Assembly: GCA_035519135.1 (NCBI GenBank)
Contig: DATIWX010000044.1
Span: forward strand, 39,270-103,269
DNA from: Burkholderiales bacterium
GTDB taxonomy: Bacteria; Pseudomonadota; Gammaproteobacteria; Burkholderiales; SG8-39
Direction: 5' to 3'
DNA length: 64,000 bases
Positions 19,991-38,608 of the stretch are shown one piece after another; the first letter of the stretch is position 1, and each line of letters opens with the position of its first letter. A program made the position numbers and the translations under genes. The notes beneath the pieces were generated by a model that worked only from the letters and a program-made list of their open reading frames with translations, was not told where the DNA came from and did not search any database.

Positions 19991-20145
19991 CGTCGTCCGA
20001 TTGCGCTCAAAGGGCGAAGACTATACCAAACCGCCCGCCCGTTGAAGCGGGACCGGCGCTGGGGCGTGCCCCGGACGCGGCCGGGTTGCTGAATCGGATT
20101 TCGGTACTTAAACTGGGACGCCGCCAGCAAGTTACTGGAGCAGCT

Positions 20146-21132
20146 TTGGCCAAAGAAACACCACAACCTGATTCGCAATGGCTGGTCTTTGTCGCCAGCC
20201 TTCCCATGGACGATCCCGCCTCCAGGATGCGGGTACTGCGCACGCTGGAGGCGATGGGTTGCGCGCTGCTGCGCGAGGGCGTGTATCTGCTGCCTGACAA
20301 GCCGGTCAACCGTCAGGGACTGCAGCGATTGTCCGAGCACACCCTTCGCATCAGCGGCTCGGCCCACGTCCTGCATGTGACCAGCGCTGACGCCGAGCAG
20401 GGACGATCATTCAAGTCGCTTTTCGACCGCGCGGCGAAATACGAGGAGCTGATCAAGGTGATCGAAGGGCTGCGAGCAGGGTTCGGCATTTCCGAGCCAA
20501 GCGCGATCGCCCGGGTGCTCAACAAGCAGCGCCGCGAATTCGAGGCTATCAGCGCCTTGGATTTCTTCGATTCACCCTTGAAGGAGCAAGCCGCGCGCGT
20601 GCTGCGAGAGACCGAGGCCGAGGTACGCAAGAGAATGTTCCCCGACGCGGCCAAGTCGGGCGGACGCCTGACCCAGACCGGGCGGTACTATTTCAAGCGG
20701 GTCTGGGCGTCACGCAAGCCTCTTCTGGCCGACCGGCTCGCGTCGGGGTGGCTGATACGGCGGTTCATCGACCCGGAGGCAGTGCTCATGTGGCTGGACA
20801 AGACCCAGCCGTGCCCCTCGACTGCGGTCGGGTTCGGTTTCGAGGGCGCGACCTTTTCCAACAGCAGGGACAAGGTGACGTTTCAGGAGTTGCTTGTGCG
20901 TTTCAGCCTGGACGGCAACGAAACGCTCGCCAGGATCGGCGCGCTGGTGCACTACCTCGACGCCGGGGGCGCCGCGCCCGTCGCCGAGGCGGCGGGCGTC
21001 GAAACTCTGCTCCAGGGCGCGCGCCGCCGCTGCGGCAGCGACGAGGAGCTGTTCACCGAGACAGAAAAGACATTCGACCTGCTGTACGAGGCTTACTTCG
21101 AAGGCCCAGCAAAAGACTCGCCCTCTCGCTAG
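20146..21132 (+). CDS. ChrB-like (chromate resistance protein family) regulator
   Basis: N-terminal WLVFVASLP...RMRVLRTL...LREGVYLLP; C-terminal W.SR....DRLASGWLIRRFIDPEA, EAAG; TTG 20146 after GGAG preferred start. Confidence 0.8.
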   Translation: MAKETPQPDSQWLVFVASLPMDDPASRMRVLRTLEAMGCALLREGVYLLPDKPVNRQGLQRLSEHTLRISGSAHVLHVTSADAEQGRSFKSLFDRAAKYEELIKVIEGLRAGFGISEPSAIARVLNKQRREFEAISALDFFDSPLKEQAARVLRETEAEVRKRMFPDAAKSGGRLTQTGRYYFKRVWASRKPLLADRLASGWLIRRFIDPEAVLMWLDKTQPCPSTAVGFGFEGATFSNSRDKVTFQELLVRFSLDGNETLARIGALVHYLDAGGAAPVAEAAGVETLLQGARRRCGSDEELFTETEKTFDLLYEAYFEGPAKDSPSR

Positions 21133-23156: not shown

Positions 23157-24827
23157 TCAGGGCGATGCGGTTCGGGCGCGTTTACCCGGCGCGACGCCAG
23201 CGCTCGAAGATTCCAGGCGCTCGATCTCGTAGTCTGCGCCGTTGAAGCCCAACTCGGATGCCCGCCGGTACTCGGTCATTGCCTCCGGGATCCGGCCGAG
23301 GTGCTCCAGGACGAGCCCCAGCCTGTGGTGCCCAAGCGCGCCTTCGGGCCTCAACTCGACCGCGCGTGACAGATACGGCAGGGCCAACTGGTACTCGCCA
23401 AGCATGAAGTGGATGAAGCCGCGGGCGAAATAGCAGTGCACCGTCCCCGGATATTGTTGCATGCACCTGTCGGCAACCTCGATGGCTTTATCCGGCCTCC
23501 CCCCGTAGGCGTACTCCCTGCCCGCCATATACAGGGTACGCGAGCCCCAGGGAACGGGCTTCGCCGGAAGCTTGAGGTAGGCGTCCTCCCATAGAAGCAC
23601 GGGCCTGGAGAATGTCACTAAACGGTCGTATGCCTGGTACAGGAGTACGGGGATCGCAAGCGCGGCGGCGGCCACCCCTGCCCGCAAGGGAGCCGCACTG
23701 AGGAGCGCCGCGATGGCGATCATCACACCGGGTGCCCAGAGATAGCTCCGATAGAGCACGAACGGCTCTTGAAATCGCACAGTACTGAACTCGACCAGGA
23801 ACAAGATCCACGTGAAGAGCATCCCGAACCCGACCATTCCGATTCGGCCTCTCCGCAGGAGAAGGAGAAAGCCAACCGCGGCAAAAGCGAGGAAGGCGAA
23901 GACCTTGAGAAGGATCCAGCCGGCCGACCAGGTGTCGAAGAAATCGACCCGGACATCGATGGACATCGCACCCGTAGCCGGCCAAAGCCAGAGTGCGAGG
24001 TACTTGAAGAACAGCCCCGCCTGGGTGACCACACTCATCGGCCAGGACAAGTCGGCGATGGCGTGTCCGAAGGTGCCCTCGAGCTGGCTTGCCAGGCCGC
24101 CGAAATCGGGCTCGTACGCCGCGCCGATCAGCCATTTCCTGCCGAACGTCACGAAAATAGCCGCTGGAGCGCAGGCTGCCAGGTAGATTGCGGCGTGACG
24201 AAATGCAAAGCGCCGTTCCCCCACCAGAACTGCAGCGAGTGCCGCCGCGCCGGGCAACAGAACGCTATGCTCCTTGGACAGAACGGCCACCGAGTACATG
24301 AGCGCGGCTGACAGCGCGTCGCTATGCCGGCCACGCGTCAATCCGCGCAAGAACAACACGATCGAGAGGAGCGAGAACAGGGTGGCGAAGACGATCGTCC
24401 GCTGCACCAGATATCCGGCGCCGTAGACCGCGACCGGGTGGATCGCGAACACGGCGGCTCCGACACACGCCCAGAGTGCTGCTGTCGACTCGGTTCGCAA
24501 CCCCGGCCTGTCCGAGGGCGAAACAGCACGCAGCAGGTCGTAGATCAGCTTGCACAGTGCGAGCGCACAGGCAAGGTGGAAGACCAAGCTGACGATGCGG
24601 TGCGCCCGCATGCCGCCCACCTCGATTTCGGTGATGGCAAGCGAGAAATACGGCGGGAGACGCATGTCCAGGCCGAACGGGTGGGTCGCGTAATACGCGA
24701 ACTTATACCCGGAGAAGAATTGCCAGTCGTCGAATACTCTCGGATTGTCCAGGAAAGGCCAGTACAGGCCGCCGGCGAGAGCCACGACCAGAGCGACGCC
24801 CGTCCAGGTGAAAAGAGTTCGGCGCAT
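23157..24827 (-). CDS. TMTC-like (GT-C fold) multi-TM protein with C-terminal TPRs; putative pilin glycosyltransferase
   Basis: First-loop FDD, FAIHP....GYLVQR, LSKE, RSYL motifs, then TPRs; directly downstream of pilin. Confidence 0.7.
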   Translation of the reverse strand: MRRTLFTWTGVALVVALAGGLYWPFLDNPRVFDDWQFFSGYKFAYYATHPFGLDMRLPPYFSLAITEIEVGGMRAHRIVSLVFHLACALALCKLIYDLLRAVSPSDRPGLRTESTAALWACVGAAVFAIHPVAVYGAGYLVQRTIVFATLFSLLSIVLFLRGLTRGRHSDALSAALMYSVAVLSKEHSVLLPGAAALAAVLVGERRFAFRHAAIYLAACAPAAIFVTFGRKWLIGAAYEPDFGGLASQLEGTFGHAIADLSWPMSVVTQAGLFFKYLALWLWPATGAMSIDVRVDFFDTWSAGWILLKVFAFLAFAAVGFLLLLRRGRIGMVGFGMLFTWILFLVEFSTVRFQEPFVLYRSYLWAPGVMIAIAALLSAAPLRAGVAAAALAIPVLLYQAYDRLVTFSRPVLLWEDAYLKLPAKPVPWGSRTLYMAGREYAYGGRPDKAIEVADRCMQQYPGTVHCYFARGFIHFMLGEYQLALPYLSRAVELRPEGALGHHRLGLVLEHLGRIPEAMTEYRRASELGFNGADYEIERLESSSAGVAPGKRARTASP

Positions 24828-24880: not shown

Positions 24881-25372
24881 CTAGCCGCGGCAGGAACCCG
24901 GCAGGAACTTCGGGTTCAGGTTGGTGCCGTCGATCGTCGAACCGCAGCGCCAGGCGTAGACGGTCGTCCCGCCCACGTCGGCCTTGGTCAACATGGTCGT
25001 CGCGTCCTTCATTGGAGCCAAGGTAACGATCGAGCCATTGATGCCGGCGCTCGCCGCAAAGCCCTGGATCGCGATCTGGACCAGGCCATCCACGGTGGTG
25101 TGGATGCTCGCCACGTACTTCGAGGCTCCGCCCACGGTCGCCGCAGTGACTTCACAGCCCCAGGAGTCGGCCGCCTGCGTAGCGCTGTTGCCGCTTTGGT
25201 AGATCTCGGTCACCGAAGTACGGCACGCGCTGGCCGCCAGAATCACCTCGGAGATCTTCGCCCGGTTGCTGTAGTCCTGGTACGCGGGGAGCGCCACCGC
25301 GGCCAGAATGCCGATGATCGCGACCACGATCATCAACTCGATCAAGGTAAAGCCCTTCTGCAGCGTTCTCAT
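24881..25372 (-). CDS. pilA: Type IVa major pilin
   Basis: Short leader, [29 protein letters not shown]-terminal disulfide loop WRC...PGSC. Confidence 0.95.
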
Positions 25373-25419: not shown

Positions 25420-25436
25420 AGCAAACCGCGTGCCTG
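25420..25436 (-). promoter_or_regulatory. sigma54 (-24/-12) promoter of pilin
   Basis: Minus strand CAGGCACGCGGTTTGCT with exact GG-N10-GC spacing; AT-rich tract immediately upstream. Confidence 0.85.
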
Positions 25437-25667
25437 CCCCAGGTAAGATCCTATCTTATTGTAATTAATGCACTTTAATGCCTTCCTTAAGCTTCCCGCG
25501 AAGGAATGCACGGTCCGGCTATCCCTCATTAGGGCACAGAGTGACGCTACGCGTCACCCCCTTCGCGACCAGAAAGAAAAGGAGGGAGGCGCGGGCGGAA
25601 ACCTGCTCGACCCCACTGGGGTATTCTTCCTCAGTGGCAAAATCAGGCTCCGATCTCGCGAACGTTG

Positions 25668-25976
25668 ATGCTGTTCTCGTCCAGCAAGTTTGACACCCTG
25701 GTGCAGGGGCTGAGGCAACGGATCAGCGTGCGTTTCCCGCCGGTGATCGCCAACGACCCGGAGCGCGCCGTTTCGCGGACCCGAATCGAGGAAATACTGG
25801 ACGAGATTTTCGCCGAGACTCTGCAACCCGACAGTGAAGGCCAGATCGGGTTCCTGAGCAAAGCGCGGCTGAGAAACGCATTCAAGCGGGAATTGCGGGA
25901 AATTGGGTACGACGAGAAATTCGTCGATTTCGCCACCGACAAGCTCATCGGACGGCTGGTGCGCGCGGCCGGATAG
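25668..25976 (+). CDS. Hypothetical protein, paralogue of 57447-57785
   Basis: Shares RFPP and KA.L.N.FK..LRE.GY...F.D with the second copy. Confidence 0.75.
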   Translation: MLFSSSKFDTLVQGLRQRISVRFPPVIANDPERAVSRTRIEEILDEIFAETLQPDSEGQIGFLSKARLRNAFKRELREIGYDEKFVDFATDKLIGRLVRAAG

Positions 25977-26008: not shown

Positions 26009-27664
26009 TCAGGGCGCGAACCCGGGTATCTTGCTCTCGTCGACCTCGTCGATCTGATCCCGGGGGAGAAACTGCTCGGCGTAGCGTAGATACACCTTCT
26101 TGCGAACAAATATGTCGAACAAATCCGGATCGATATGGCCGTTCAGCCTGAAATTGCCGAGAATCCTGAGCGACTCGGAGAGAGTCTTGCCGCGCTTGTA
26201 GGGTCTGTCCTTGGCGGTCAGCGCCTCGAAGATGTCGGCGATCCCCATGACTCTGGCCTGCACGGACATCTGGTCGCGCGTCAGTCCCCGTGGGTAGCCC
26301 TTTCCGTCCATGCGCTCGTGGTGGCCTCCGGCATACTCGGGCACATTGCGCAGATGCCTGGGCCATGGAAGCGCCTCTAGCATCTTGATCGTGGCAACGA
26401 TGTGATGATTGATCGTTTCACGTTCCTCTAGAGTAAGGGTACCTCGAGCGATCGTCAGATTCTTGATCTCATCCGGGGTGAGAAAGTCCGCGGTATTCCC
26501 CGAGACGTCGATCCATTTTCGGCCGGTGCCGATGCGATTCACCCGCTCCCGGGCCTCCGCCTCCATGACCTCGCCTCCGATATTGCAATGACGAAGGAAT
26601 TCCCGCTCGCTATCGAGCTGGCGCCGGCTTTCCGCGCAGTCCCGGTCGATCTGCATGAGTTGCTCGTGCGCGGCACTCTCGCTCAGCCCTGGTTTGCGAA
26701 GGACCTCGAGCTTGCGCTTCAGGCCCTCGATGTCCACGTCGCGTTTCAACACCTCGAAGCGCGTGTCCACCAGATTGATGCGATCGAAGATCGTTTCGAG
26801 CTTGGTTGCCTTGTCCACGACGTGCACCGGGGTCGTCACCTTGCCGCAGTCGTGCAGCAAGCCCGCTATCTTCAGCTCGTAGCGGTCCTTGTCGGTCATC
26901 TTGAATTCCTGAAGCGGGCCGTCGTAGGTCTCGTTGACGGCCTCGGCCAGCATCATCGTGAGTGCCGGAACACGCTGACAGTGGCCGCCGGTATAGGGGG
27001 ACTTCTCGTCGATCGCGGTGTTGATGAGCGCAATGAAAGACTCGAACAGCACTTCCAGCTGGTTGATGAGATGCCGGTTCGTGAGCGCAATCGCGGCTTG
27101 GGACGCGAGCGACTCTGCTAGACGCTGATCCGAAGACGTGAATGGCCCGACCTCGCTTGCTGTATGGGCGGTGCGGTTGATCAACTGGAGCACGCCGATG
27201 ATCTCGCCCTCGTGGTTCTTCATCGGCACGGTGAGAAACGCCTTGGAGCGGTACCCCGTCTTCTTGTCGAAATTGCGCGTGCCCGAGAAGTCGAAGCCCT
27301 CCTCCGAATACGCGTCTGCGATGTTGACCGTCTTGCCGGTCAAGGCGGCGTACGCCGCGACCATCTGGTTGTTCGGCTTGCCGTCCTTGCCGTACAGGTG
27401 CACCGGGTAAAAGGGTATGGGATTGCCGGTGGTACCGCCCATGGCGATGTCCAGCGCCTCGTTGCGCATGATCGCAAACCGGAGCCGGGGGCCTTCATCG
27501 GAGGGTTCCAGCACATACAGGGTGCCCCCGGCCGCGCGCGTGATCGTTTTTGCGGCGAGCAGGATCTTCTCCAGCAGGTGGTCGATATCCCTTTCCTGCG
27601 AGAGCGCGGAGCCTATCTCGTTGAGTTGCTCGAGACGGCGAAACAGATCCTCGTCGGTCTCCAA
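26009..27664 (-). CDS. GAF + HD-GYP phosphodiesterase
   Basis: GAF (DKKTGYRSK..LTVP, QLIN); HDCGK, HHERMDGKGYP, ADIFEALT; TTG start. Confidence 0.92.
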   Translation of the reverse strand: METDEDLFRRLEQLNEIGSALSQERDIDHLLEKILLAAKTITRAAGGTLYVLEPSDEGPRLRFAIMRNEALDIAMGGTTGNPIPFYPVHLYGKDGKPNNQMVAAYAALTGKTVNIADAYSEEGFDFSGTRNFDKKTGYRSKAFLTVPMKNHEGEIIGVLQLINRTAHTASEVGPFTSSDQRLAESLASQAAIALTNRHLINQLEVLFESFIALINTAIDEKSPYTGGHCQRVPALTMMLAEAVNETYDGPLQEFKMTDKDRYELKIAGLLHDCGKVTTPVHVVDKATKLETIFDRINLVDTRFEVLKRDVDIEGLKRKLEVLRKPGLSESAAHEQLMQIDRDCAESRRQLDSEREFLRHCNIGGEVMEAEARERVNRIGTGRKWIDVSGNTADFLTPDEIKNLTIARGTLTLEERETINHHIVATIKMLEALPWPRHLRNVPEYAGGHHERMDGKGYPRGLTRDQMSVQARVMGIADIFEALTAKDRPYKRGKTLSESLRILGNFRLNGHIDPDLFDIFVRKKVYLRYAEQFLPRDQIDEVDESKIPGFAP

Positions 27665-27707: not shown

Positions 27708-30074
27708 TTACTTGATGCAGACCGCGCGGACCTGCGGCATGTCGGTGATACCCTGAAGCACCTTTTCGATCCCGTCCATCTTCAGGGTCCGCATGCCTTC
27801 CTCAAGACTGACGGCCAGGATCTCCGCGACGCGTGCATGCTCCTGGATCAGTTTCTTGATGGGGTCCGACGCGAGCAGCAGCTCATGCAGGCCGACTCGC
27901 CCTTTGTAGCCCGTATTGCCGCAAGTATCGCAGCCCTTGGCCTTGTAGAGAGTAAACTGGCCCTTGTCGTTCGCGTAGCTCTTGGCGAGGTCCCTGTAGA
28001 CGTTCTCGTAGGCGGACTTGGCGTCCTTCTTGAACGGTCCTGTGTTGAGGAGTTCCGAGCAGTACTCCTGGAGAAGGTGCTTCATCTCCTCTCCGCCGGC
28101 AACGTAGGGCTGCTTGCACTTGCTGCATAGCCGCTTGGCGAGCCGTTGCGCGAGGATTCCCAGCAGCGCATCGGCGAAATTGAAGGGATCCATGCCCATA
28201 TCGAGCAGCCGGATGATGGACTCCGGCGCGCTGTTGGTGTGCAGTGTCGCGAAAACCAAGTGGCCGGTGAGGGACGCCTCGATACCCGTGCCGGTGGTCT
28301 CCTTGTCGCGCATTTCGCCGACCATGATGATGTCCGGGTCGGCGCGGAGGAATGATTTCATCACGGCCGCGAAGTCGAGTCCCGCCTTCTTGTTGACCTG
28401 AACCTGGCGCAGGCCCTTCTGCGTAATCTCAACCGGGTCCTCGGCGGTCCAGATCTTGGTATCCGAGGTATTGAGGAAACCCAGGACTGAGTGCAGCGTG
28501 GTGGTCTTCCCGGAACCGGTCGGGCCGCAGACGAAGAAAAGCCCGTAGGGCTTGCTTACGGTGTCCTTGAGCTTGGGCAGGTTCGAGGGCGACAGCCCGA
28601 GCTTGTCGAGCGGGATCGGCTCCCCTGCCGCAAGGATACGCATGACCACGTCCTCGACGCCACCCTGGGAGGGGATCGTCGCCACCCGCAGCTCGATGTC
28701 GAGCGGACCGAATTTCTTGAACTTGATCTTGCCGTCCTGCGGTTTGCGCTTTTCGGAAATATCGAGGTCGCACATGATCTTGATGCGCGCGACGATCGCA
28801 TTCCGGTAAGCGCCCGGAACTTCGATGTAAGGGAACAGCGAGCCGTCTTTCCTGAACCGGATCTCGGTTTTCGCCTTGCCCGGATAGGGTTCGATGTGAA
28901 TATCCGAGGCCCCCTGGTTGTAGGCGTCGATGATGATCTTGTTGACCAGCTTGACCAGCTCGTTGTCCGCCGCCGCGGAAACATCGTCATCCCCACCGGC
29001 CTCTACCGGCCCTTCGTCATCCTCGAGGCCAGAGAGCATGTCTCCGATGTCGCCGCTGTCGACCGCCTCCGCCCCGTAGAAGGCCTTGAGCGTGTCCTTG
29101 AACTCCTTGAGGGTGGTGACGCGATACACGAGCTTACGGCCCGGAAAGACATTCTGGACGATACGTGAACTCTTTATCCTCTCCGGATCGAGACAGAGGA
29201 TCACCAGACCTTCCTTCGAGTCCTCGATGGGAACCCATTGATTGGATTCCACGTACTCGCGCTTGAGGTTCTTCAGCAGATCCATCGGCTTGATGCGATC
29301 CGGCTTGAATGGCTCGTAGGGCGTTCCGAAGAATTTCGCCAGCGCTGCACCGATGGCAGGAAGCTTGACCTGGAACTCCTCGGCCAGCACGTTCTCGACA
29401 TCGACGGCCTTCTTGCGCGCGGAGCGCGCAGCCAGCTCGAACTCCGCCGCGGAGATCACAGCGTCGCTGACGAGAAAGTCATATTTCGTCTTGAGAACCT
29501 GCGGCTTCTGACGCTGCTTGAGAGCGATGGCGAGCGTCTGGCAGAGCTCGGTTACGCCCTCCTCGGCCAGCTGGCCGAAGGGCACGCCGGCCTTGTTGTT
29601 GATCAGCTGGACTACGCCGACCAGCTCACCCCCAAGCTCTGCAACCGGCGCAACCAGCATCTGCTTGGTCCGGTAACCGGTGCGCTTGTCCACCTCCTGC
29701 AGGAAACGCAGGTTAGGGTTATGGGTCCTCAGCTCGCTCTCGTCGTAGACATCCTTCAGGTTGAGCATTTTCTTGGACAGGCCGACGAAGCCTGCGATCG
29801 AGTGCTCGGCGATCGGAAGTTTCAGGTCCTTGAACGAGTTCAGCCCGGTCTTGACCTTGGAGACGATGGTCTGCTTGTCCTCGCCGACGGTGTAGATCGT
29901 GAGCCGGTCGGCGTTGAACAGGGTGCAGATGTCCGCGCTGACCTCCAGCATGATCTCGTCCACGTTGCTCGTGGCGTGGATCTTGTTGGTGACCGTCTGG
30001 AGGTTCTTCTGGAAATTCAACCGGCTGTTGACGTCGCCGGCCGCGCCCACGTGCGTCTGTAGTACCGCGCTCAT
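27708..30074 (-). CDS. GAF-domain PilB/GspE-family assembly ATPase
   Basis: N-terminal GAF; ASDIHIEP, Walker A GPTGSGKT, EDPVE, Walker B IIMVGE, His box LTGH..TLH, CSKC/CDTC. Confidence 0.93.
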   Translation of the reverse strand: MSAVLQTHVGAAGDVNSRLNFQKNLQTVTNKIHATSNVDEIMLEVSADICTLFNADRLTIYTVGEDKQTIVSKVKTGLNSFKDLKLPIAEHSIAGFVGLSKKMLNLKDVYDESELRTHNPNLRFLQEVDKRTGYRTKQMLVAPVAELGGELVGVVQLINNKAGVPFGQLAEEGVTELCQTLAIALKQRQKPQVLKTKYDFLVSDAVISAAEFELAARSARKKAVDVENVLAEEFQVKLPAIGAALAKFFGTPYEPFKPDRIKPMDLLKNLKREYVESNQWVPIEDSKEGLVILCLDPERIKSSRIVQNVFPGRKLVYRVTTLKEFKDTLKAFYGAEAVDSGDIGDMLSGLEDDEGPVEAGGDDDVSAAADNELVKLVNKIIIDAYNQGASDIHIEPYPGKAKTEIRFRKDGSLFPYIEVPGAYRNAIVARIKIMCDLDISEKRKPQDGKIKFKKFGPLDIELRVATIPSQGGVEDVVMRILAAGEPIPLDKLGLSPSNLPKLKDTVSKPYGLFFVCGPTGSGKTTTLHSVLGFLNTSDTKIWTAEDPVEITQKGLRQVQVNKKAGLDFAAVMKSFLRADPDIIMVGEMRDKETTGTGIEASLTGHLVFATLHTNSAPESIIRLLDMGMDPFNFADALLGILAQRLAKRLCSKCKQPYVAGGEEMKHLLQEYCSELLNTGPFKKDAKSAYENVYRDLAKSYANDKGQFTLYKAKGCDTCGNTGYKGRVGLHELLLASDPIKKLIQEHARVAEILAVSLEEGMRTLKMDGIEKVLQGITDMPQVRAVCIK

Positions 30075-30196: not shown

Positions 30197-31267
30197 TCAC
30201 CGGCGCTTCGCATCTCCCCAGAGGCCGCCGGCGAGCACGAACGCCCGGTACCCGCGTTGCGCAAGGAGAAACGCCCCCGCGGCGCTGCGACGCTCGCTCT
30301 GGCAGTAGAGCACGTACTCCTTTCCCTTGTCCAGGGCACCGAACGCATTGCGGATTTCCGACAATGGAATGTTGATGGCCCCCGGAAGTTTGTCGTACTG
30401 GTACTCCGACGGGTAGCGTACGTCGATCCATTGAGCTCCGCTCGCCACCTTCGCGCGCGCCTCTTCGGCGGACACTCTGTGCAGCAGCGGCTCCCTCAGC
30501 AGCTCGACGAAATCCTTCTTTGCAAGCCTGAGCAGGGCACCGTCGCTCTTCATGGTCACGGTGGCGTTGCGTTTGACCTCCGACACCAGCGCTTCCTCGC
30601 CGAACGCATCCCCGCTCTTCAAGTCGGCGAGCAGCATGGACACGCCCCCGACCATTCGCTCTACCTTGCACCGCCCGCTCTCGATCACGAAATAGAAGTC
30701 GCCTTCCGCCCCCTCGCGGATCACGACGTCGCCTTTCTTGACTTCGATGCGCTCGAACCGGCGCAGCAACTCGTCGATATGCGCAGGGGGCAGGTGCGAG
30801 AAAGCCCCGTACTTCAGGCTGCTGGCGCTGAACATCCCGGACATGACGGCCCAGCTGGCAGATGAACGGCCCTTTTCGGTATTGTTCCTCGCTGGGACTT
30901 CTGCAGACGCAACCTGATCCCACGTAGCCATGACATCCAGCAGGTCGTCGTCAATACGCAGCAACTCCACGTCGGTGATCGCCTTGGCGCTGGTGAAGAC
31001 TTCGCCTCGATGAGCGAGGGGATACCGCGATCGGTCTGACCCTCCCACCAGTACCTTCGACGAACCGTCCGGATACGTCAGCACCAGCTCTCCCCGAAGC
31101 AGAAAAACCGCCTGACCGGCCATGTTGCGTACCAGGAACGGATCCGAGTTCTTTCCGACCGGCTCCACCTGGCAAAGACCTGCGAGCTCGTTGAGCCTGG
31201 TATCGGGTAAGGACCCGAGCGGCTCGAAATTTCTCAGCACCTCGACGCTTACCCTAGCCGCGCACAT
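30197..31267 (-). CDS. cNMP-binding + rhodanese domain protein
   Basis: FGEEAL....RNATV phosphate-binding cassette; IDVR..EY...LPGAINIP, YCQSERRS. Confidence 0.88.
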   Translation of the reverse strand: MCAARVSVEVLRNFEPLGSLPDTRLNELAGLCQVEPVGKNSDPFLVRNMAGQAVFLLRGELVLTYPDGSSKVLVGGSDRSRYPLAHRGEVFTSAKAITDVELLRIDDDLLDVMATWDQVASAEVPARNNTEKGRSSASWAVMSGMFSASSLKYGAFSHLPPAHIDELLRRFERIEVKKGDVVIREGAEGDFYFVIESGRCKVERMVGGVSMLLADLKSGDAFGEEALVSEVKRNATVTMKSDGALLRLAKKDFVELLREPLLHRVSAEEARAKVASGAQWIDVRYPSEYQYDKLPGAINIPLSEIRNAFGALDKGKEYVLYCQSERRSAAGAFLLAQRGYRAFVLAGGLWGDAKRR

Positions 31268-31312: not shown

Positions 31313-32080
31313 TCAAAACTCGAACACCTGATTGTTCTGCAGCATCCGCGGCCGGTACTGGCCGGCGTCCTCCTCGATCTCCTGCATCGTCAGCTCGATT
31401 TCTCCGGGTTTGAGGTGCGTGATGTAGATTTCCGCGCTGCGTTCGAGTTTCGCCAGCTCCTCGGCAAGCATGCTCGGGCACAAGTGCTTTGAAATGACCG
31501 CCAGCTCCCTTTCGCGGTTGCAAAACGCTGTCTCGATGATCAGGTACCTGAGGTTGGAAATCCTGTTGACGACCGACCAGAGGGGATCGTTCGTCGTCGT
31601 GTCGCCGGTAAACACCAGGCTGCCCTTTCCCGAGTCCAGGTGGTACCCGACCGCCGGCACGACGTGATTGGCCGGAAGCGCCGTGACTTTGCGCTTCTTC
31701 AACTCCACCGTGTCGCCGACCTGGATCTCCCGGTAGCGCAGAAAGGGTTTGTCCGGGCTCGGGATCTGGGAAAAATCGGGCCAGATGCTCCAATTGAAGA
31801 TGTGGTTACGAAGAATCTCCAGCGTCGCCGGAACAGCCCAGAGCGTCAGAGGCTGGTCGCGCATGCCCCCGACCGTATCCACCATGAAAGGAATGCTGGC
31901 GACATGGTCGAGATGCGAGTGCGTGAGGAAAACATGATCGATCAGGGAAAGCTCCGTGAGCGAGAGGTCCGCCACACCTGTCCCGGCGTCGACGAGAATG
32001 TCGTTGTCGAGAAGCATTGAGGTCGTGCGCAGATGCCGGCCCCCGATTCCACCGCTGCAGCCCAGAATCCGGAGCTTCAT
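31313..32080 (-). CDS. Class II (MBL-fold) 3',5'-cyclic nucleotide phosphodiesterase
   Basis: LGCSGG, DAGTG, THSHLDH, HIFN..IWPDF, TGDT, HL.P, HLKP. Confidence 0.87.
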   Translation of the reverse strand: MKLRILGCSGGIGGRHLRTTSMLLDNDILVDAGTGVADLSLTELSLIDHVFLTHSHLDHVASIPFMVDTVGGMRDQPLTLWAVPATLEILRNHIFNWSIWPDFSQIPSPDKPFLRYREIQVGDTVELKKRKVTALPANHVVPAVGYHLDSGKGSLVFTGDTTTNDPLWSVVNRISNLRYLIIETAFCNRERELAVISKHLCPSMLAEELAKLERSAEIYITHLKPGEIELTMQEIEEDAGQYRPRMLQNNQVFEF

Positions 32081-32096: not shown

Positions 32097-34358
32097 CTAT
32101 TTCTCGTCGAACACCGTGACCCCGTCCCAGTCGGGTGGCGGGGGATTGCGACGCTTCACCGCCACCTCGCTTGCGTACATTTTGTAGAGGGCGCAATCGG
32201 GGTTCACGCGCTGGAGGTTCAGCAGGCCGACTTCGACTTGGTCCCACTGCCGGGCGCGGTACTGGCGGAGCGTCTGGTGCCATAGCTTGAGCTCGTCGAG
32301 CACCTTCTTTTCGACGTGGGTTTCCATCCCGATCGGCTCGTAGATCGTGATCGCCTCATCCTTGCCCTTGACCTTGATCTTGTCGATCTCCTTGAAAACC
32401 ACATCCTGGACGAGCTTGCGGCTCGCTTCTCCGACCAATATGCCGACCCCGTAGTGCTTGGTCCTTCCTTCCAGCCGGGAGGCGACGTTCACGGCATCGC
32501 CCATGGCAGTGTACGCCTTGCGCTGCTTGGACCCCATGTCGCCTACCCGGACGCTTCCGGAGTTGACCCCGATGCCGATCTTCAGGGTCGGCCAGCCCCG
32601 CGCGGTGAACTTCTGATTCAAGATGTCGCACTGGCGCAGCATCTCCATGGCCGCGAGAATGCCGTTGCGCGGGTGGGTGTTGTCTTCCACGGGGGCATTC
32701 CAGAAGGCCATGATCGCGTCCCCGATGTACTTGTCGAGCGTGCCCCGATACTTGCCCCGGATGATGTCGCTCATGTCGGTCAGATACTCGTTGATGTATT
32801 CGCGCAGGTGCTCGGGGCTCAACGCCTCGGAGATACTGGTGAAGCCACGCACATCGGAAAACAGAATGGTGAGCTCGGCATTGCGCGGCTCCATCGTATA
32901 CTGCTCCGGGTCCTCCGCCATCTTGTCCACGAGCTCGGGCGGGACATACTGCCCAAAGAGCTCGGTGAATTGCCGCTTGGAGCGTGCTTCCACGAAGTAT
33001 CCATAGGCCATGTTGACCGTGTATAGCGTTGCTGTCATGAGGATCGAAGCCGCAAGCGGCAGCACCAGGCCCGAGTACGACCACAACGCCACGTCCAGCA
33101 GGGTAATCAGCACCACCCCCGCTAGGGCCGCGGCCGAAGCCCACAGCGGTGCAAGCAGCGGAATCAGGAACGTCAGCGCGATGCCGCCGATGACAAGCAA
33201 TATCACTTCCGCCCCCAGCATGTAGGGCGGTTTTTGCTTGAGCTTGCCGTCGAGCATGCCCGCGATCAGGTTGGCGTGGATCTCCACGCCGGGATACACG
33301 TTGTCGACCGGCGCCGAGCGAAGATCGAACAGGCCCGGGGCGGTCGCCCCGATCACCGCGATCTTCCCCCGAAGCTTCTCCGGCGCCACCCTGTCTGCCC
33401 AGATGTCGGAGAACGAGATATAGGGGAAACTGCTCCTTGGACCCCGATAGGGAACCAGCGACGCAAGTTCCTCGTCCACAGGGATCTTGAGCGGGCCGAC
33501 CTCGAGCCACTCTACGCCCGTGTATCCCCGGGTGACAAAACGGTCGGGGATGGCATTGATGGTGACACCGGGCAGCTTGATCGTCGCGGTCTTGTTTCGC
33601 GCGGCTTCCTGGATGCCCAGGTACATCCGCACGATCGCCAGGGAAAAGGACTCGTAGTACTTTCCCTTGTATTCGGCGAGCATCGGCACGCGTCGCGACA
33701 CCCCGTCGTCGTCCACGCGCGGATTGAAGTGCCCGGCACTGACCGAAGATTGGAATTCGGGCAGGTTTCCCGTATATCCGCGCCAATCCAGGACCGTGAT
33801 CCTCCTCGCGCTGAACGTCTCGGCGGGAAGGACGGGCTCCGGAAGGGCGCCGCTCTCGACGGCGTTCTTGTCGCTGTTGAAGTAGTAGCCGAGAACCACC
33901 GGCCGCCCACGGATGAAATTCGCGAACTTCGTGTCGTAGTCGAGCTCGGGGCGCAGTTGAGCGAGAGCCGACTGGAAAGCGCCGATGTCCTTGAGCCGCG
34001 TCTTGCCGAGCCTCTCGAGCGCCGGGAGACCGGAGCTCTCGTCCGGCTCCGAGAATACGACATCGTAGGCGACTATGAGGACGCCGTACTTATCGAACAG
34101 CTTCTCAAGGAGAGCGGTCTGCTTGTCTCGGCTCCAGGGCCAGCGGCCCAGTGCGCGCGGGTCCAGGCTGCGCTCGTCGATGTCCAGGATGACGACCCTG
34201 TCATCGACCGTGCCCGGCATGGTCAGCCGGAGACGGTAGTCGTAGATGATATTGTCGAGCTGGGTAACGAACCTTATCTGGTAGAGCTTTGCCGCGTGTC
34301 CCAGAAACACCAGCGTAACGAGGAGACCAAGCGCAATCCGGACGATGTGCTGCTTCAG
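32097..34358 (-). CDS. CHASE2 class III adenylate cyclase
   Basis: CHASE2 (DIDERSL..GRWPWSR, PGVEIHA), 3 TMs, FSDVRGFT, DKYIGDAIMAFW, YTAMGDAVNVASRLE; probable CTG start 34358. Confidence 0.92.
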   Translation of the reverse strand: MKQHIVRIALGLLVTLVFLGHAAKLYQIRFVTQLDNIIYDYRLRLTMPGTVDDRVVILDIDERSLDPRALGRWPWSRDKQTALLEKLFDKYGVLIVAYDVVFSEPDESSGLPALERLGKTRLKDIGAFQSALAQLRPELDYDTKFANFIRGRPVVLGYYFNSDKNAVESGALPEPVLPAETFSARRITVLDWRGYTGNLPEFQSSVSAGHFNPRVDDDGVSRRVPMLAEYKGKYYESFSLAIVRMYLGIQEAARNKTATIKLPGVTINAIPDRFVTRGYTGVEWLEVGPLKIPVDEELASLVPYRGPRSSFPYISFSDIWADRVAPEKLRGKIAVIGATAPGLFDLRSAPVDNVYPGVEIHANLIAGMLDGKLKQKPPYMLGAEVILLVIGGIALTFLIPLLAPLWASAAALAGVVLITLLDVALWSYSGLVLPLAASILMTATLYTVNMAYGYFVEARSKRQFTELFGQYVPPELVDKMAEDPEQYTMEPRNAELTILFSDVRGFTSISEALSPEHLREYINEYLTDMSDIIRGKYRGTLDKYIGDAIMAFWNAPVEDNTHPRNGILAAMEMLRQCDILNQKFTARGWPTLKIGIGVNSGSVRVGDMGSKQRKAYTAMGDAVNVASRLEGRTKHYGVGILVGEASRKLVQDVVFKEIDKIKVKGKDEAITIYEPIGMETHVEKKVLDELKLWHQTLRQYRARQWDQVEVGLLNLQRVNPDCALYKMYASEVAVKRRNPPPPDWDGVTVFDEK

Positions 34359-34392: not shown

Positions 34393-35172
34393 TCAGGCCT
34401 TGATGAAGAATTCCATCTTGACCCCGGCGAGCTCGATCACGTCGTGGTCGTTCAACGCGTGAGCCTGGGCATCGAGCGGCTTGCCGTTCACCACGGGGAA
34501 GCTCGCCCCCTCGACGTGGGTGATGAAGAAACCCTGAGGCCTGCGCGTGATGACGGCCACCTGCACCCCGGGCTTGCCGAGCGTCGTAAGGGGCTTGGTG
34601 AGATCAAGCTCCTTGCCGGCGTTGGCCCCTGAAAGAAGCTGCAGAGCCGCGGATTTTTGCGAGGCAGCTGCCGGCTTGGCCGATACCGGAGGCATGGTCG
34701 TAGCGGGCCCCGGCCCTCCGACGGTGTCCCCCATGGCCTTCGCGACGGCGGGCGCCGGTGCGGGTGCCGCCGCGGGAGCGGCGTGCGCAGGAGCGGGTGC
34801 AGCGGGGGCCGGAGCGGGCTTGATCGCACCCGGCCGGAGCACCATCGTCTTTTCGAAATCGGCCGCCTTGGCGACTCCGGCGGGCGTCTCGTTCACATAC
34901 TTGAGCTTGTACTTGCCCAGTTCGATGATGTCGTTGTTCTGAAGAAAATGCTTCTTGATCGACTGACCGTTCACGACCGTCCCGTTCGTGCTTCCCAGGT
35001 CCTCGAGAAACGAGTCTTGCAGGATAGTTACGATGACGGCGTGTTCCCCGCTTACCGCGAGGTTGTCGATCTGGATGTCGTTATGCGGTTTGCGGCCGAT
35101 GGTGGTACGTTCCTTGGTCAGGTTGATTTCCTTGAGAACCAGGCCGTCCATGCTCAGTATCAGCTTCGCCAT
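34393..35172 (-). CDS. FHA domain protein (FHA, Pro/Ala linker, degenerate FHA)
   Basis: IGRKPHND...VSGEHA...DLGSTNGT; second domain has LGKPG without the conserved Arg. Confidence 0.9.
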   Translation of the reverse strand: MAKLILSMDGLVLKEINLTKERTTIGRKPHNDIQIDNLAVSGEHAVIVTILQDSFLEDLGSTNGTVVNGQSIKKHFLQNNDIIELGKYKLKYVNETPAGVAKAADFEKTMVLRPGAIKPAPAPAAPAPAHAAPAAAPAPAPAVAKAMGDTVGGPGPATTMPPVSAKPAAASQKSAALQLLSGANAGKELDLTKPLTTLGKPGVQVAVITRRPQGFFITHVEGASFPVVNGKPLDAQAHALNDHDVIELAGVKMEFFIKA

Positions 35173-35192: not shown

Positions 35193-36017
35193 CTATCTAA
35201 ACCAGCTCATCATCTTGCCCATGATGCTGCGCGGTGCGGGGAATTCCCGCAGCACCCGAACGAGTATTACCGAAATATTGTCCCGGCCCCCGTTGTCATT
35301 TGCTGTCTGCACCAGATGCTGGGCGCACAGCTTCAGGTTGGAGCTCAGCGTCTGCAACGCCAGGCCGATATCTTCGTCGCCCACCATATCACAAAGGCCG
35401 TCCGAGCAGAGCAGATAGATGTCTCCCGGCTGGGTGTCGTGATCGTGTATTTCGGGCTCGACCGTGGGGTCGATGCCGAGCGCGCGCGTGACGAGGTTTT
35501 TGTTCTGCGACTGCTTGGCCTGCTGTGGCGTGATCACGCCGCTGTCGATCTGCTCCTGGAGGAGCGAGTGATCCTTGGTGATCTGCTTTAGCTCGTCGCC
35601 CCGCATCCGGTACAGGCGCGAATCGCCGATGTGCGCCACGGTCATCTTGTTGTCGTAGAACAAGGCCACCACCAGCGTCGTCCCCATGCCGGCATACTGC
35701 GGTTGGCTCTGCGCCGCCTGATAGATCGAGGTGTTCGCCTTGGCTATCTGATCGTGCAACAACTGGTGCGCGATCAGCTGTCCGCTGGATGCGTCGGTTT
35801 CGTACGGGGTTCTTTTCTCCAGCAGCTGTTGCAGTTCGGTAATGATCACCGTCGTCGCCATGCCGCTTGCCACCTCGCCTGCGTTGTACCCCCCCATGCC
35901 GTCCGCCAGCACGACAAGACCCTTTTCCCCGTCGGAGGCGATCGAATCCTCGTTGTGGGCGCGCACCATCCCCGGATCGGTGCAACTCGCGATCTCTAGC
36001 GCCCCCGACAATGTCAT
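35193..36017 (-). CDS. PP2C-family Ser/Thr phosphatase (Stp1-like)
   Basis: RAHNED, ADGMGG, GMGTT, HIGDSR, TKDHS, CSDGL, GGRDN. Confidence 0.94.
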   Translation of the reverse strand: MTLSGALEIASCTDPGMVRAHNEDSIASDGEKGLVVLADGMGGYNAGEVASGMATTVIITELQQLLEKRTPYETDASSGQLIAHQLLHDQIAKANTSIYQAAQSQPQYAGMGTTLVVALFYDNKMTVAHIGDSRLYRMRGDELKQITKDHSLLQEQIDSGVITPQQAKQSQNKNLVTRALGIDPTVEPEIHDHDTQPGDIYLLCSDGLCDMVGDEDIGLALQTLSSNLKLCAQHLVQTANDNGGRDNISVILVRVLREFPAPRSIMGKMMSWFR

Positions 36018-36034: not shown

Positions 36035-38608
36035 TCAGAGGCTGATGTCGACCCCGGTGCCGGTCGCAGGCGCGCCGGCACCGCCAAAGGCGGCCCGCAA
36101 TTCGAAAGCGAATTCCTCCCCTGTCTGGTGCCGCTGGTCGGCATCCTTCGACATGGCCCTGTCGAGAAAGGCAACGAATCTCGGGGGGAGAGAGGGGTTG
36201 TACTGCAGGATGTCCGGCGCGTTCTCGTTGGCGATCTTGTACATGAGCTGCGCCATCGAGTCGCCTTCGAAGGGGAGCCTCCCGCAGGAGAGCTGGTACA
36301 GGCTCACGGCCAGGGAGAACAGGTCGCTGCGGCCGTCGATCTTCTTTCCTTGCAGCTGCTCGGGCGACATGTAGGACGGCGTCCCGAGCACCATGCCTGT
36401 CTTGGTCTTGGAGGAGTCGGTGATCCTGGCAATGCCGAAGTCGGTCACTTTGACCACGTCGCTTTCCGGCTCGTACATGATGTTCGCGGGCTTGACGTCG
36501 CGGTGCACGACGTTTTGCTTGTGCGCATACCCGAGCGCGTCGGCCACGCGGGCAATGATCGACACCACCTTGTCGATCGGGAGCAGGTTGCCCGGCTTGG
36601 TGAACGGCACGAGATCCTTGCCCTTCAGGAGCTCCATGGCGATATAGCACAGGTCGTGCTCCTCGCCCGCATCGTAGATGGTCACGATGTTGGTGTGGCT
36701 CAGGCGCCCCGCCGTCTCGGCCTCGCGGAAGAACCGCTCCTTGACCTCGGCCAGCTCGTCCGCTTCGAATTCCTGCGAAAGGGCCATGGTCTTGATCGCA
36801 ACCACCCGGCTGATCTTGGGGTCCCTGCCCTGGTACACGACGCCCATTGCACCCTTGCCGAGCTCCTTCTCCACCTGATAGCGCCCGAGCATCGGCTTCT
36901 CGGTCCCGCCGCCGAGCGCCAGCGTTCCGCCCGGATGGCTCTGCGTCCCGCCGAGAATGACCGTCTCCGACATCTGCTTGGCGCGCGAGAGCCTCGCCTC
37001 GAGATCCCGGAACTTCGGGTTGTGGCCGGCCATATAGCCGAACACCGCCTCGGCCTTGTTGAACTGGCGCTTGCGCTCGAAATCCAGGGCGAGGTTGTAG
37101 AGGTTGTCCATGACGGTGTCGTCGAGCGGCACCTTGCGGAAGTAGTCGAAGGCCATGTCGAGCTGGCCCTGGCCCTGGAACGCCAGGCCGAGCATGCGGG
37201 CGTTCGCGGCGGATTGCGCGTCCGAGACTTCCTTGCCGCGCTCCGTGACCATGAAGCGCTTCGTGACGAGAAGCACGTGCCCCACGACCAGAAGGGTCAG
37301 CGGCAACATGAACTGCAGCCACATCCCCTGGCCCGTCATCAGCACGAAGTGGGCGGCGAGCAGCACTGCCACGATGCCGGCGGTAACGCCCGCACCCAGC
37401 CCCGCCGAGAGACGCGGCAGCAGCGCAATCAGATAGGCCGCGACCAGCAGAAAGACCAGCCTTTCGACGATCCATCCCCAGGTCGGTACGACGAAGAAAT
37501 GCCCCTGCAGGAGCGAGGAGACCGTGTGCGCCAGAAGCTCGACGGATGCCGTGGCCGGACTCACCGGCGTGACGAAGATGCTGCCGACGCCGGCCGCGGT
37601 CGGGCCGATGAGCACGATCTTGTCGCGGTATTTCTCCGCGGGAATCTTGCCGCTGGCGACGTCGTAGAACGAGTCCTCCTGGATCGCCGGCTTGCCGTCG
37701 CGGTCCTTGTAGAAGTAGGTGAACATCTGCATCGTGGGATCGGCGCTCACCCTGAAATTGCCGATCTGCAGCGCTTCACCCGGACGGATCTGGATGTCCT
37801 TGGCGCTCAGGTTGAGGCTCTTCGCGACTAGCATTGCCGCCACGGACGGGTAGAACTCGTCGTAGTACGTGACCGCCAGCGCTTCGGTCCGGATCGCTCC
37901 GTCCACGTCGGGCACCGCATTGAGATGCCCCACGGCCGCCGCCGCCGCGCCTAGGCTGTCGACGACCGGGATTTCCACCCCGCTGGTCGATAGCGGCCTG
38001 TCGTCGCCGATCCCCTGGATTGCAAGCGCATTCTTGCGCACGAAGTCAGGAAGGGGTTTGTCGGGCTTGCCGCGCGGCTCGCCGAAAGTGAACAGCATCG
38101 GCAACACGACGTTGCCTGCCTTGGCGAAGCTGTCCGCCAGTTTCCGGTCGGTGTTCAGGGCTGCCTCCGCTTCCTGCAAGGTCGCACCCATTTCAACGAC
38201 GTCCGGTGACACCCCTCGGGGCGGCGAACTCGCGTCTGTGCCTGCCGGGACGATCCGGTGGTAGGTGTCCAGGAGGCGGTTGATGTAAGTCAGCCCCGGA
38301 TCGAGTTGCGGTTCGGAAAAAAACACCGTGTAGCCGATGACCTTTGCTTTCGCGCTCGCCAAACGCTCGATCATCTTCGCGTGAATCTCGCGCGACCAGG
38401 GCCAGCGGCCGATATTGTCGATGCTCTGCTTGTCGATCGCGATGATCGCGACCTTGTCGGACGGCGTTCGCGAGGAGGCCTTGACGCCCCAGTCGTAGGC
38501 GGCGCGCTCCAGGCCCTGAATCAGCTGGCCCCCCCCTACGAACAAGAGCACGAGCGACACCACCAGACCGAGAAACCAGTCTTTTTTCCAGAAGCCCGCT
38601 TTGGTCAT
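36035..38608 (-). CDS. CHASE2 membrane Hanks-type Ser/Thr kinase
   Basis: CHASE2 (AIDKQS..IGRWPWSR), TMs, GKGAMGVV, VAIK, HRDVKPAN, DFG, GTPSYMSPE. Confidence 0.94.
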   Translation of the reverse strand: MTKAGFWKKDWFLGLVVSLVLLFVGGGQLIQGLERAAYDWGVKASSRTPSDKVAIIAIDKQSIDNIGRWPWSREIHAKMIERLASAKAKVIGYTVFFSEPQLDPGLTYINRLLDTYHRIVPAGTDASSPPRGVSPDVVEMGATLQEAEAALNTDRKLADSFAKAGNVVLPMLFTFGEPRGKPDKPLPDFVRKNALAIQGIGDDRPLSTSGVEIPVVDSLGAAAAAVGHLNAVPDVDGAIRTEALAVTYYDEFYPSVAAMLVAKSLNLSAKDIQIRPGEALQIGNFRVSADPTMQMFTYFYKDRDGKPAIQEDSFYDVASGKIPAEKYRDKIVLIGPTAAGVGSIFVTPVSPATASVELLAHTVSSLLQGHFFVVPTWGWIVERLVFLLVAAYLIALLPRLSAGLGAGVTAGIVAVLLAAHFVLMTGQGMWLQFMLPLTLLVVGHVLLVTKRFMVTERGKEVSDAQSAANARMLGLAFQGQGQLDMAFDYFRKVPLDDTVMDNLYNLALDFERKRQFNKAEAVFGYMAGHNPKFRDLEARLSRAKQMSETVILGGTQSHPGGTLALGGGTEKPMLGRYQVEKELGKGAMGVVYQGRDPKISRVVAIKTMALSQEFEADELAEVKERFFREAETAGRLSHTNIVTIYDAGEEHDLCYIAMELLKGKDLVPFTKPGNLLPIDKVVSIIARVADALGYAHKQNVVHRDVKPANIMYEPESDVVKVTDFGIARITDSSKTKTGMVLGTPSYMSPEQLQGKKIDGRSDLFSLAVSLYQLSCGRLPFEGDSMAQLMYKIANENAPDILQYNPSLPPRFVAFLDRAMSKDADQRHQTGEEFAFELRAAFGGAGAPATGTGVDISL

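Follow-up and report, generated by a model that had tools for sequence, protein, structure and literature searches.

PilB is treated as the near-universal extension motor of type IVa pili (T4aP). The best functional precedent for a second motor on the same machine is TfpB of Acinetobacter baylyi, an orphan and phylogenetically distinct PilB homologue that is a proven T4aP motor and that accompanied PilB in 15 of 16 species (PMC8213720). Second messengers can be sensed at the N terminus of an extension ATPase, as in Vibrio cholerae MshE and Myxococcus xanthus PilB, which use cyclic di-GMP (c-di-GMP) via MshEN. In the 2024 PilB review that treats these examples, control of pili by cyclic AMP (cAMP) is described via Vfr-dependent transcription only, and the word "GAF" is absent from the main text (PMC11656802). 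Two further papers remark on PilB paralogues only as unexplained (PMC3164672, PMC8557921). Here, we analyze a window of 64,000 nucleotides from a Burkholderiales bacterium (assembly GCA_035519135.1, contig DATIWX010000044.1, positions 39,270 to 103,269 of the forward strand), which encodes a PilB/GspE-family extension ATPase with an N-terminal GAF domain, referred to below as GAF-PilB. Judged from sequence, GAF-PilB is probably a T4aP extension motor, and it likely represents a third clade of such motors, often the main one. On balance, we favor the fuller reading that this distinct PilB-family clade drives T4aP extension, replaces PilB together with PilZ in many Burkholderiales, and is switched by cAMP.

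The domain order GAF-MshEN-T2SSE was catalogued in 2016, without reference, for gamma- and deltaproteobacteria (Wang et al. 2016, Supplementary Table 4, PMC5013675), and Geobacter lovleyi Glov_1971 has the same order as GAF-PilB when the two are compared by architecture alone. The listing is silent on function, ligand, and operon, and does not compare its distribution with that of PilB. Our literature search, whose scope left out most subscription papers and supplements besides PMC5013675, returned no study of the GAF-PilB family and nothing on Glov_1971. What is new here is the evidence for the job that GAF-PilB does, namely, its distribution, the co-loss of PilZ, a pilB relic, and natural chimeras.

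GAF-PilB is a single open reading frame (ORF) of 788 amino acids (aa), in which Pfam places a GAF domain at aa 38-185 (E 3.5e-8), MshEN/T2SSE_N (PF05157) at aa 249-336 (32.4 bits; cut-off 23.1), and T2SSE at aa 369-782 (E 1e-114). This agrees with a first-pass annotation, made from the sequence alone, that described a PilB/GspE-type ATPase with an N-terminal GAF domain. The same annotation had the GAF domain standing in place of MshEN, which is not what the structural model contains: four helices (approximately residues 199-249) followed by an alpha/beta subdomain persist behind the GAF domain and align with the N-domain of canonical PilB. The GAF domain is an addition in front of the MshEN fold, and the c-di-GMP motif alone is missing. 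In GTDB genomes, at least 614 of the 621 stretches picked out by pattern encode a relative, and when aa 15-340 served as a protein query, 6524 of 7998 scored candidates matched. From the matches listed, 80 related loci, nearly all labeled Betaproteobacteria/Burkholderiales, were kept, and the query plus 79 of these (the incomplete L095 was left out) form a family set of 80 sequences. An RLGxxL-like motif, the mark of the MshE-type c-di-GMP receptor, occurs in the first 350 residues of just 1 of the 80, so that its reported absence was correct. The description of the ATPase motifs as intact was equally sound, with Walker A, Asp box, Walker B, and His box present in 80/80 sequences and the zinc-site cysteines C650, C653, C715, and C718 invariant in 76/76.

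By membership tests, the GAF-PilB clade is neither canonical PilB, TfpB, GspE, nor MshE. The window protein scores 481.5 against TIGR02538 (canonical PilB; cut-off 675.65), 441.6 against TIGR02533 (GspE of the type II secretion system [T2SS]; cut-off 630.25), and 399.7 against NF053534 (TfpB; cut-off 850), and GAF-PilB and TfpB fall in separate clades of a quick tree. With canonical PilB (Xanthomonas citri PilB-PilZ, PMC8389850; Geobacter 5TSG/5TSH), it has in common the N-domain fold, N2D and CTD, the catalytic motifs, and the zinc site, at 40-44% core identity, and neither carries the c-di-GMP motif, which is likewise missing from Xanthomonas and Pseudomonas PilB (PMC8389850). GAF-PilB differs from canonical PilB in its extra GAF domain, its score under the family cut-off, its place outside pilBCD, its occurrence without PilZ, and a longer segment between the Cys pairs. 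The full-length model has low confidence in N2D (residues 435-484; pTM 0.42), and no interdomain contact is therefore read from it; a complex prediction for the N-domain (aa 190-345) with the PilM of this genome scored 0.03 (mark 0.32) and is used neither way.

The assignment as a motor is carried by distribution. We surveyed a set of 251 Burkholderiales genomes, which were at least 92% complete except for the added genome of this window, taking TIGR02538 above its cut-off as canonical PilB and a match to aa 1-338 at E 1e-40 as GAF-PilB. Canonical PilB is present in 140 of the 251 genomes, GAF-PilB in 120, PilM in 202, and the type IV pilus (T4P) PilZ in 145. Both motors occur together in 50 genomes (PilM in 50, PilZ in 50), canonical PilB only in 90 (PilM in 83, PilZ in 86), GAF-PilB only in 70 (PilM in 68, PilZ in 9), and neither in 41 (PilM in 1, PilZ in 0). 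PilM thus accompanies GAF-PilB in 118 of its 120 carriers, 2 being without it, and 68 of the 69 PilM-containing genomes without canonical PilB have GAF-PilB. The sole PilM-containing genome with neither motor (G364) is 92% complete, and both sampled members of its family have GAF-PilB. As GAF-PilB is present in nearly every surveyed genome that has a T4P machine and no standard PilB, it is likely a replacement motor. The earlier suggestion of an alternative extension motor is consequently backed more strongly than it was proposed, since the protein looks like a PilB replacement in many lineages and not a mere extra copy.

PilZ, the cofactor of PilB, is lost together with canonical PilB: it is found in 136 of the 140 genomes with canonical PilB, and the nine genomes that have PilZ with GAF-PilB only are made up of seven with chimeric motors, one with a pilB relic, and one assembled in 680 contigs. 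With the seven chimera genomes set aside, 63 GAF-PilB-only genomes remain in 18 families, 61 of them with PilM, and 23 of those 61 without TfpB. Members with canonical PilB are also found in 6 of the 18 families, which suggests repeated loss of pilB. Exhaustive scoring of the candidates in 10 of the genomes that lack canonical PilB turned up no protein above the TIGR02538 cut-off. Incompleteness as the reason for pilB absence was ruled out by single-contig genomes in which every candidate was scored and pilB is missing, by the co-loss of PilZ, and by the unrelated gene upstream of pilC. A class-wide TIGR02538 survey covered 2 genomes of the order besides that of the window and is used for no claim. 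Named carriers of GAF-PilB include Nitrosomonas, Gallionella, Sideroxydans, Propionivibrio, and Noviherbaspirillum. Three loci (L018, L062, and L063) carry the titles of Bordetella parapertussis, Mycobacteriaceae, and Lysobacter metagenome-assembled genomes, look out of place among betaproteobacterial carriers, and are possibly mislabeled bins.

The pilC-pilD locus tells of the same replacement. The lack of an adjacent pilC or pilD, remarked on at the outset, holds across the family, as pilC, pilD, and pilT gave no match in any of the 80 related loci. A genome search for a canonical pilB-pilC-pilD locus, proposed as a check, finds pilC-pilD on contig C38 of this genome with no pilB alongside. 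Among genomes of 1-6 contigs that have GAF-PilB only, pilC-pilD is intact in 8/8 with no ATPase match in the 1.5 kb upstream; in canonical genomes, pilB lies at that spot upstream of pilC in 5/5. One genome (G445), which retains PilZ, has a 163-codon relic of canonical pilB (L239:2900-3391) immediately before an intact pilC-pilD pair; the relic is frameshifted and has lost a large internal part.

A second GAF-clade core is present in seven of the nine PilZ-containing genomes that have GAF-PilB only, six from family f243 and one from family f252. In three of them (G339, G467, and G474), a chimeric gene lies directly upstream of pilC-pilD. Its N-domain is that of canonical PilB (50-53% identical to the PilB of G331), and its core is 74-77% identical to GAF-PilB and 41% identical to canonical PilB. 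In G504, a GAF-clade core with its N terminus cut off precedes pilC; in G389 and G430, the fusion lies at a contig end; and in G540, the chimera is followed by an HD-GYP gene and a pilin and may be a misjoin. When the crossover was examined in 40-residue windows, the G474 chimera had 18-20 matches per window to canonical PilB and 3-8 to the GAF-PilB copy of its own genome up to residue 160, and 2-26 versus 19-38 past it. The G339 chimera follows the same pattern, and the changeover coincides with the beginning of the linker. In the 6 pairs that could be compared, chimeric and native cores within a genome have 79-91% DNA identity and share uninterrupted identical stretches of 48-141 bp. G339, G467, and G474 each have two different GAF-clade cores at 79-83% DNA identity, on which ground we rejected an assembly artefact as the source of their chimeras.

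In a quick tree of 81 rows, the chimeric cores nest inside the GAF clade with an SH-like approximate likelihood ratio test (SH-aLRT) value of 99. The best trees place the f243 chimeric cores with the f243 GAF-PilB copies and the G474 core with the f252 copies, so it is suggested that chimeras arose twice; a single chimera clade is not rejected by the approximately unbiased (AU) test (p-AU 0.263; 5 chimeras versus 39 rows, with 6 partial rows dropped). The PilB linker has been found to act together with a patch on N2D to which the phage inhibitor Aqs1 binds (PMC13436744), and such cooperation fits the transfer of linker and patch as one unit in the chimeras. It could be speculated that core swapping serves to evade inhibitors of PilB whose binding site is on the N2 domain. 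Of all the observations, the chimeras indicate most directly that a GAF-clade core can work with a T4aP PilC, an indication that, because they retain the canonical N-domain, extends to core compatibility only and does not reach the docking of a GAF-type N-domain on PilM, which tempers our reading. As the chimeras part the docking N-domain from linker plus core, they offer a ready test of which of the two sets machine specificity. More tentatively, and as a version that we consider about as open to doubt as to belief, 61 of the 251 Burkholderiales genomes may run T4aP with a motor gated directly by cAMP, PilB and PilZ having been discarded several times and the cores recombining at the linker.

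Related ATPases carry other N-terminal extensions. A sister clade (L226-L233, from G404, G340, G366, G315, G367, G277, G534, and G424) consists of proteins of 790-900 aa with cores 58-66% identical to that of GAF-PilB. Behind an unannotated N-terminal stretch of approximately 130-200 aa, these proteins have several copies of an MshEN-like helical unit bearing RIG/KLG-type motifs. These motifs imply that the same type of core also occurs with a probable c-di-GMP input. Two further ATPases of approximately 800 aa (L160 in G457 and L165 in G378) have another N-terminal extension, and the gene in G457 lies approximately 5 kb upstream of pilM. In other classes, tandem matches to GAF plus N-domain were observed (G604:C249 and G676:C89), one of them in an ORF of 465-498 aa beside an ATPase.

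The ligand of the GAF domain is predicted, somewhat more confidently than not, to be cAMP on the basis of sequence comparison. The resemblance to GAF domains of the cyclic nucleotide (cNMP)-binding type was proposed from motifs that are indeed in the sequence, and the closest PDB entry by sequence is the cAMP-binding CyaB2 GAF pair 1YKD (E 4.8e-28 with a single sequence and 1.1e-37 with a profile). The predicted pocket comprises R57, T59, V74, D129, T132, Y134, T136, and Q156. In the 1YKD alignment, numbered by hand from L270, the CyaB2 cAMP contacts R291, T293, I308, D356, and N359 (PMC4411481) correspond to R57, T59, V74, D129, and T132. Conservation of these residues is high: R57 in 80/80, T59 in 78/80, V74 (as V, I, or L) in 80/80, D129 in 80/80, and T132 in 80/80, with T132 at the N359 position, where CyaB2 GAFa also has T. 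When 16 distant homologues (30-36% identity) are included in an alignment of 64 sequences, no more than 13 of its 178 columns show a single residue throughout, R57, T59, D129, and Q156 among them; the invariance of 3 of the 5 named contacts has a hypergeometric p of 0.003, which is a guide only, as the sequences are related. The GAF domains of Anabaena CyaB2 (1YKD), PDE10A (GAF-B, 2ZMF), and Leptospira Lcd1 (5W10) have fold and pocket residues in common with GAF-PilB, which differs from them in being a single GAF domain on a hexameric motor and in lacking K and D of the NKFDE motif.

The strongest competing explanation keeps GAF-PilB as a T4aP extension motor and holds that its GAF domain does not bind cAMP, or binds another ligand such as cGMP, the input then being, for example, the neighboring kinase/PP2C/FHA trio or GAF-mediated oligomerization. 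We consider this unlikely, and several observations nevertheless speak for it and against a cAMP switch. NKFDE is reduced to N159, F166, and E171. N159 and F166, invariant in 80/80, bear out part of the signature first noticed; its "NK", however, used K161, one residue off, and the true K position, residue 160, is N in 55, S in 10, T in 7, and H in 6 sequences, with K outside the four commonest residues. The D position, residue 170, is A in 34, V in 11, M in 10, and T in 6, with D similarly outside the four commonest. In CyaB2, variants in which the NKFDE Asp is replaced by Ala reportedly remain responsive to cAMP. Both K and D are thus lost in the Burkholderiales clade, whereas the distant homologues, which come from other classes of the phylum (25/151 genomes, that of the window included; the wrong-strand row L281 was set aside), keep D in 18/18 and K in 17/18 and have L or M at the E position. 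In PDE2, PDE5, and PDE11, replacing NKFDE residues with alanine is reported to reduce cGMP binding or eliminate it, although the same source states that the NKFDE residues make no ligand contact (PMC11977230). The isolated CyaB2 GAFb also binds cGMP (PMC4411481).

Structure prediction, another check proposed initially, gave a GAF model with pLDDT 90 whose fold is near that of cNMP-type domains, with 1YKD the second Foldseek match and PDE5, PDE10, and the cAMP-bound bacterial Lcd1 GAF following; the first match was instead 4MCW, the GAF domain of the HD-GYP protein PmGH, which adds to the points against, as it is not known to bind a ligand. The cyclase is near GAF-PilB in just 56/80 loci (some incomplete), and in five Nitrosomonas loci (L070, L073, L080, L082, and L084), the phosphodiesterase (PDE) is the sole partner beside the gene; a class III cyclase is, however, encoded somewhere in each of 4 genomes examined for one, including 3 of family f220. 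In favor of cAMP, the contact residues R57, T59, D129, and Q156 are unchanged in a domain that is otherwise largely variable. In the GAF domain of the neighboring HD-GYP protein, the equivalent of R57 is G or A in 70/70, which shows that this Arg is not required for the fold. Of the proposal of cAMP gating by the neighboring cyclase, then, the conserved pocket, the conserved catalytic residues of the cyclase, the frequent presence of the PDE, and the cNMP-binding protein in the same gene cluster speak indirectly in favor, and the lost K and D and the incomplete presence of the cyclase do not.

Less probable still is an accessory role, in which TfpB or an MshE-like ATPase would extend the pilus where canonical PilB is gone, and GAF-PilB would prime or tune it. 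The genome of this window (G000; 89.9% complete) has pilMNOPQ and pilT/U, as well as pilG/pilH/chpA by motif search only, and PilZ was not found in it by search or between holB and tatD. It encodes five extension-type ATPases: GspE, within the gsp cluster; two MshE-like proteins, each beside its own platform gene; GAF-PilB; and an orphan (L003, C95:16960-18792) that passes the TfpB cut-off at 920.8. Several points count here against GAF-PilB as the principal motor. TfpB is encoded in this genome and in all 6 sampled relatives of its family, so that GAF-PilB as the sole motor is not established here, and it occurs in 45/70 genomes with GAF-PilB only; in A. baylyi, the two motors differ in role, and TfpB by itself is enough for pili to form (PMC8213720). 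As many as 50 genomes retain canonical PilB in addition to GAF-PilB, which also means that GAF-PilB is not simply redundant. Furthermore, the canonical PilB search scored approximately five candidates per genome, and because the genomes are related, the distribution counts overstate independence.

TfpB cannot, however, account for the pattern, as it is found in 44 only of the 69 PilM-containing genomes without canonical PilB, and the 23 counted above have PilM and GAF-PilB and lack canonical PilB, a chimera, and TfpB alike. In two single-contig genomes (G316 and G490), GAF-PilB is accompanied by one other extension-type ATPase, and the latter lies beside its own platform gene. An accessory role is also difficult to reconcile with the recruitment of a GAF-clade core into pilB itself. 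As a separate observation, the TfpB N-terminal region occurs in 125/251 genomes of the order, far past the Gammaproteobacteria set of the original paper. That GAF-PilB serves a T2SS or MSH-type system, or is a stand-alone signaling ATPase apart from T4aP, is very improbable, for although it adjoins a platform gene in 0/80 loci, finds GspE-GspL (4PHT) as the top fold match of its full-length model, and has a core whose grouping with canonical PilB in the quick tree is weak (SH-aLRT 83, with a warning of long-branch joining), an ATPase of its own is encoded in the T2SS locus and in each of the two MSH-like loci here, GAF-PilB tracks PilM and fills the PilB gap, a pilin lies inside the fetched flank in 46/80 loci, and the chimeras sit at pilBCD.

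A motor switched by cAMP, our preferred reading, can be placed into the context of its neighborhood (Table 1). On the same strand, the order is CHASE2 kinase, PP2C, FHA, CHASE2 cyclase, class II-like PDE, cNMP-rhodanese protein, and GAF-PilB, followed by GAF-HD-GYP, then the pilin, and then a membrane protein with TPRs. Counts over the 80 loci are floors, as many loci end at contig ends. In the cyclase, D486, K527, D531, T601, N608, and R612 are invariant in 54/54 sequences; we take these six to be the catalytic-site residues that define an active adenylyl cyclase. It can be hypothesized that the CHASE2 cyclase would raise cAMP and the class II PDE remove it, and that cAMP would close the GAF pocket and shift the last helix of the GAF domain, which runs into the N-domain, so that docking or a stable hexamer is permitted. 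The hexamer would dock on PilC via its core and on PilM via its N1 subdomain and could extend PilA pili with no need of PilZ. Signals carried by c-di-GMP and phospho-Thr might reach this switch as well, via the HD-GYP and kinase/PP2C/FHA genes, and in this genome, TfpB may share the work with GAF-PilB, as PilB and TfpB do in A. baylyi.

Table 1. Coordinates in the window of GAF-PilB, its domains, and neighboring features
Feature	Position	Strand	Basis and occurrence
GAF-PilB (P0001)	27708..30074	-	PilB/GspE-family extension ATPase, single 788-aa ORF
GAF domain, CyaB2/PDE type (aa 15-192)	29499..30032	-	Sequence alignment, conservation, model
MshEN-fold N-domain (aa 195-336), no c-di-GMP motif	29067..29492	-	Four-helix bundle plus alpha/beta N1 subdomain
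Acidic linker (aa 337-368)	28971..29066	-	PilB-chimera crossover maps to linker start
ATPase core N2D+CTD (aa 369-782)	27729..28970	-	Walker A/B, Asp box, His box, four-Cys zinc site
CHASE2 + Ser/Thr kinase	36035..38608	-	Domain search; 37/80 loci
PP2C Ser/Thr phosphatase	35193..35993	-	Domain search; 50/80 loci
FHA-domain protein	34393..35172	-	Domain search; 54/80 loci
CHASE2 + class III cyclase	32097..34310	-	Adenylyl-type residues; at least 56/80 loci
Metallo-beta-lactamase-fold class II-like cAMP phosphodiesterase (predicted)	31313..32080	-	HxHxDH kept; 73/80 loci
cNMP-binding + rhodanese protein	30197..31267	-	Domain search; 34/80 loci
GAF-HD-GYP protein, likely c-di-GMP phosphodiesterase	26009..27664	-	Domain search; 71/80 loci
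Type IVa major pilin	24881..25372	-	Pilin + N_methyl; pilin match in 46/80 loci
Sigma-54-like -24/-12 site, ~50 bp upstream of pilin	25421..25435	-	Position suggestive only
Membrane protein, TPRs + weak PMT_2	23157..24827	-	PMT_2 22.8 bits, under cut-off 26.1

The sigma-54-like site is the sole match with one mismatch in the window, where approximately 4 would be expected by chance. The membrane protein directly after the pilin is possibly a pilin glycosyltransferase. The pilin has the same N-terminal ~60 residues as one on a different contig (G000:C95:22292-22951), the pair being either a duplication or an assembly repeat, and a third major-type pilin is found at the end of contig C18. Elsewhere in this genome, a class III cyclase is fused to a C-terminal PilZ domain (G000:C117:2836-3933), a possible link from c-di-GMP to cAMP. 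Between the HD-GYP and pilin genes, a 103-aa ORF on the opposite strand (25665-25976, +) has homologues in 16/80 loci and no Pfam or NCBIfam match. Further along, a ChrB-family protein (ChrB_N + ChrB_C; 20086-21132, +) has an MFS gene on one side and a BepA-like M48 peptidase on the other.

Considered together with the known systems, GAF-PilB likely works most like TfpB and would add direct sensing of cAMP. Unlike TfpB, it forms a separate clade, carries a sensor domain, and is found without canonical PilB in 70 of 120 genomes. The likeness to MshE and M. xanthus PilB would lie in the sensing of a second messenger at the N terminus of an extension ATPase, the difference being that these use c-di-GMP via MshEN (PMC11656802) and that GAF-PilB, which lacks the motif, is predicted to use cAMP on a separate GAF domain. 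If the preferred reading is true, genomes scored as "pilB missing" would have complete pili, and many environmental Betaproteobacteria would build their pili with another motor that responds directly to cAMP, which would be the first pilus or secretion motor under allosteric control by cAMP.

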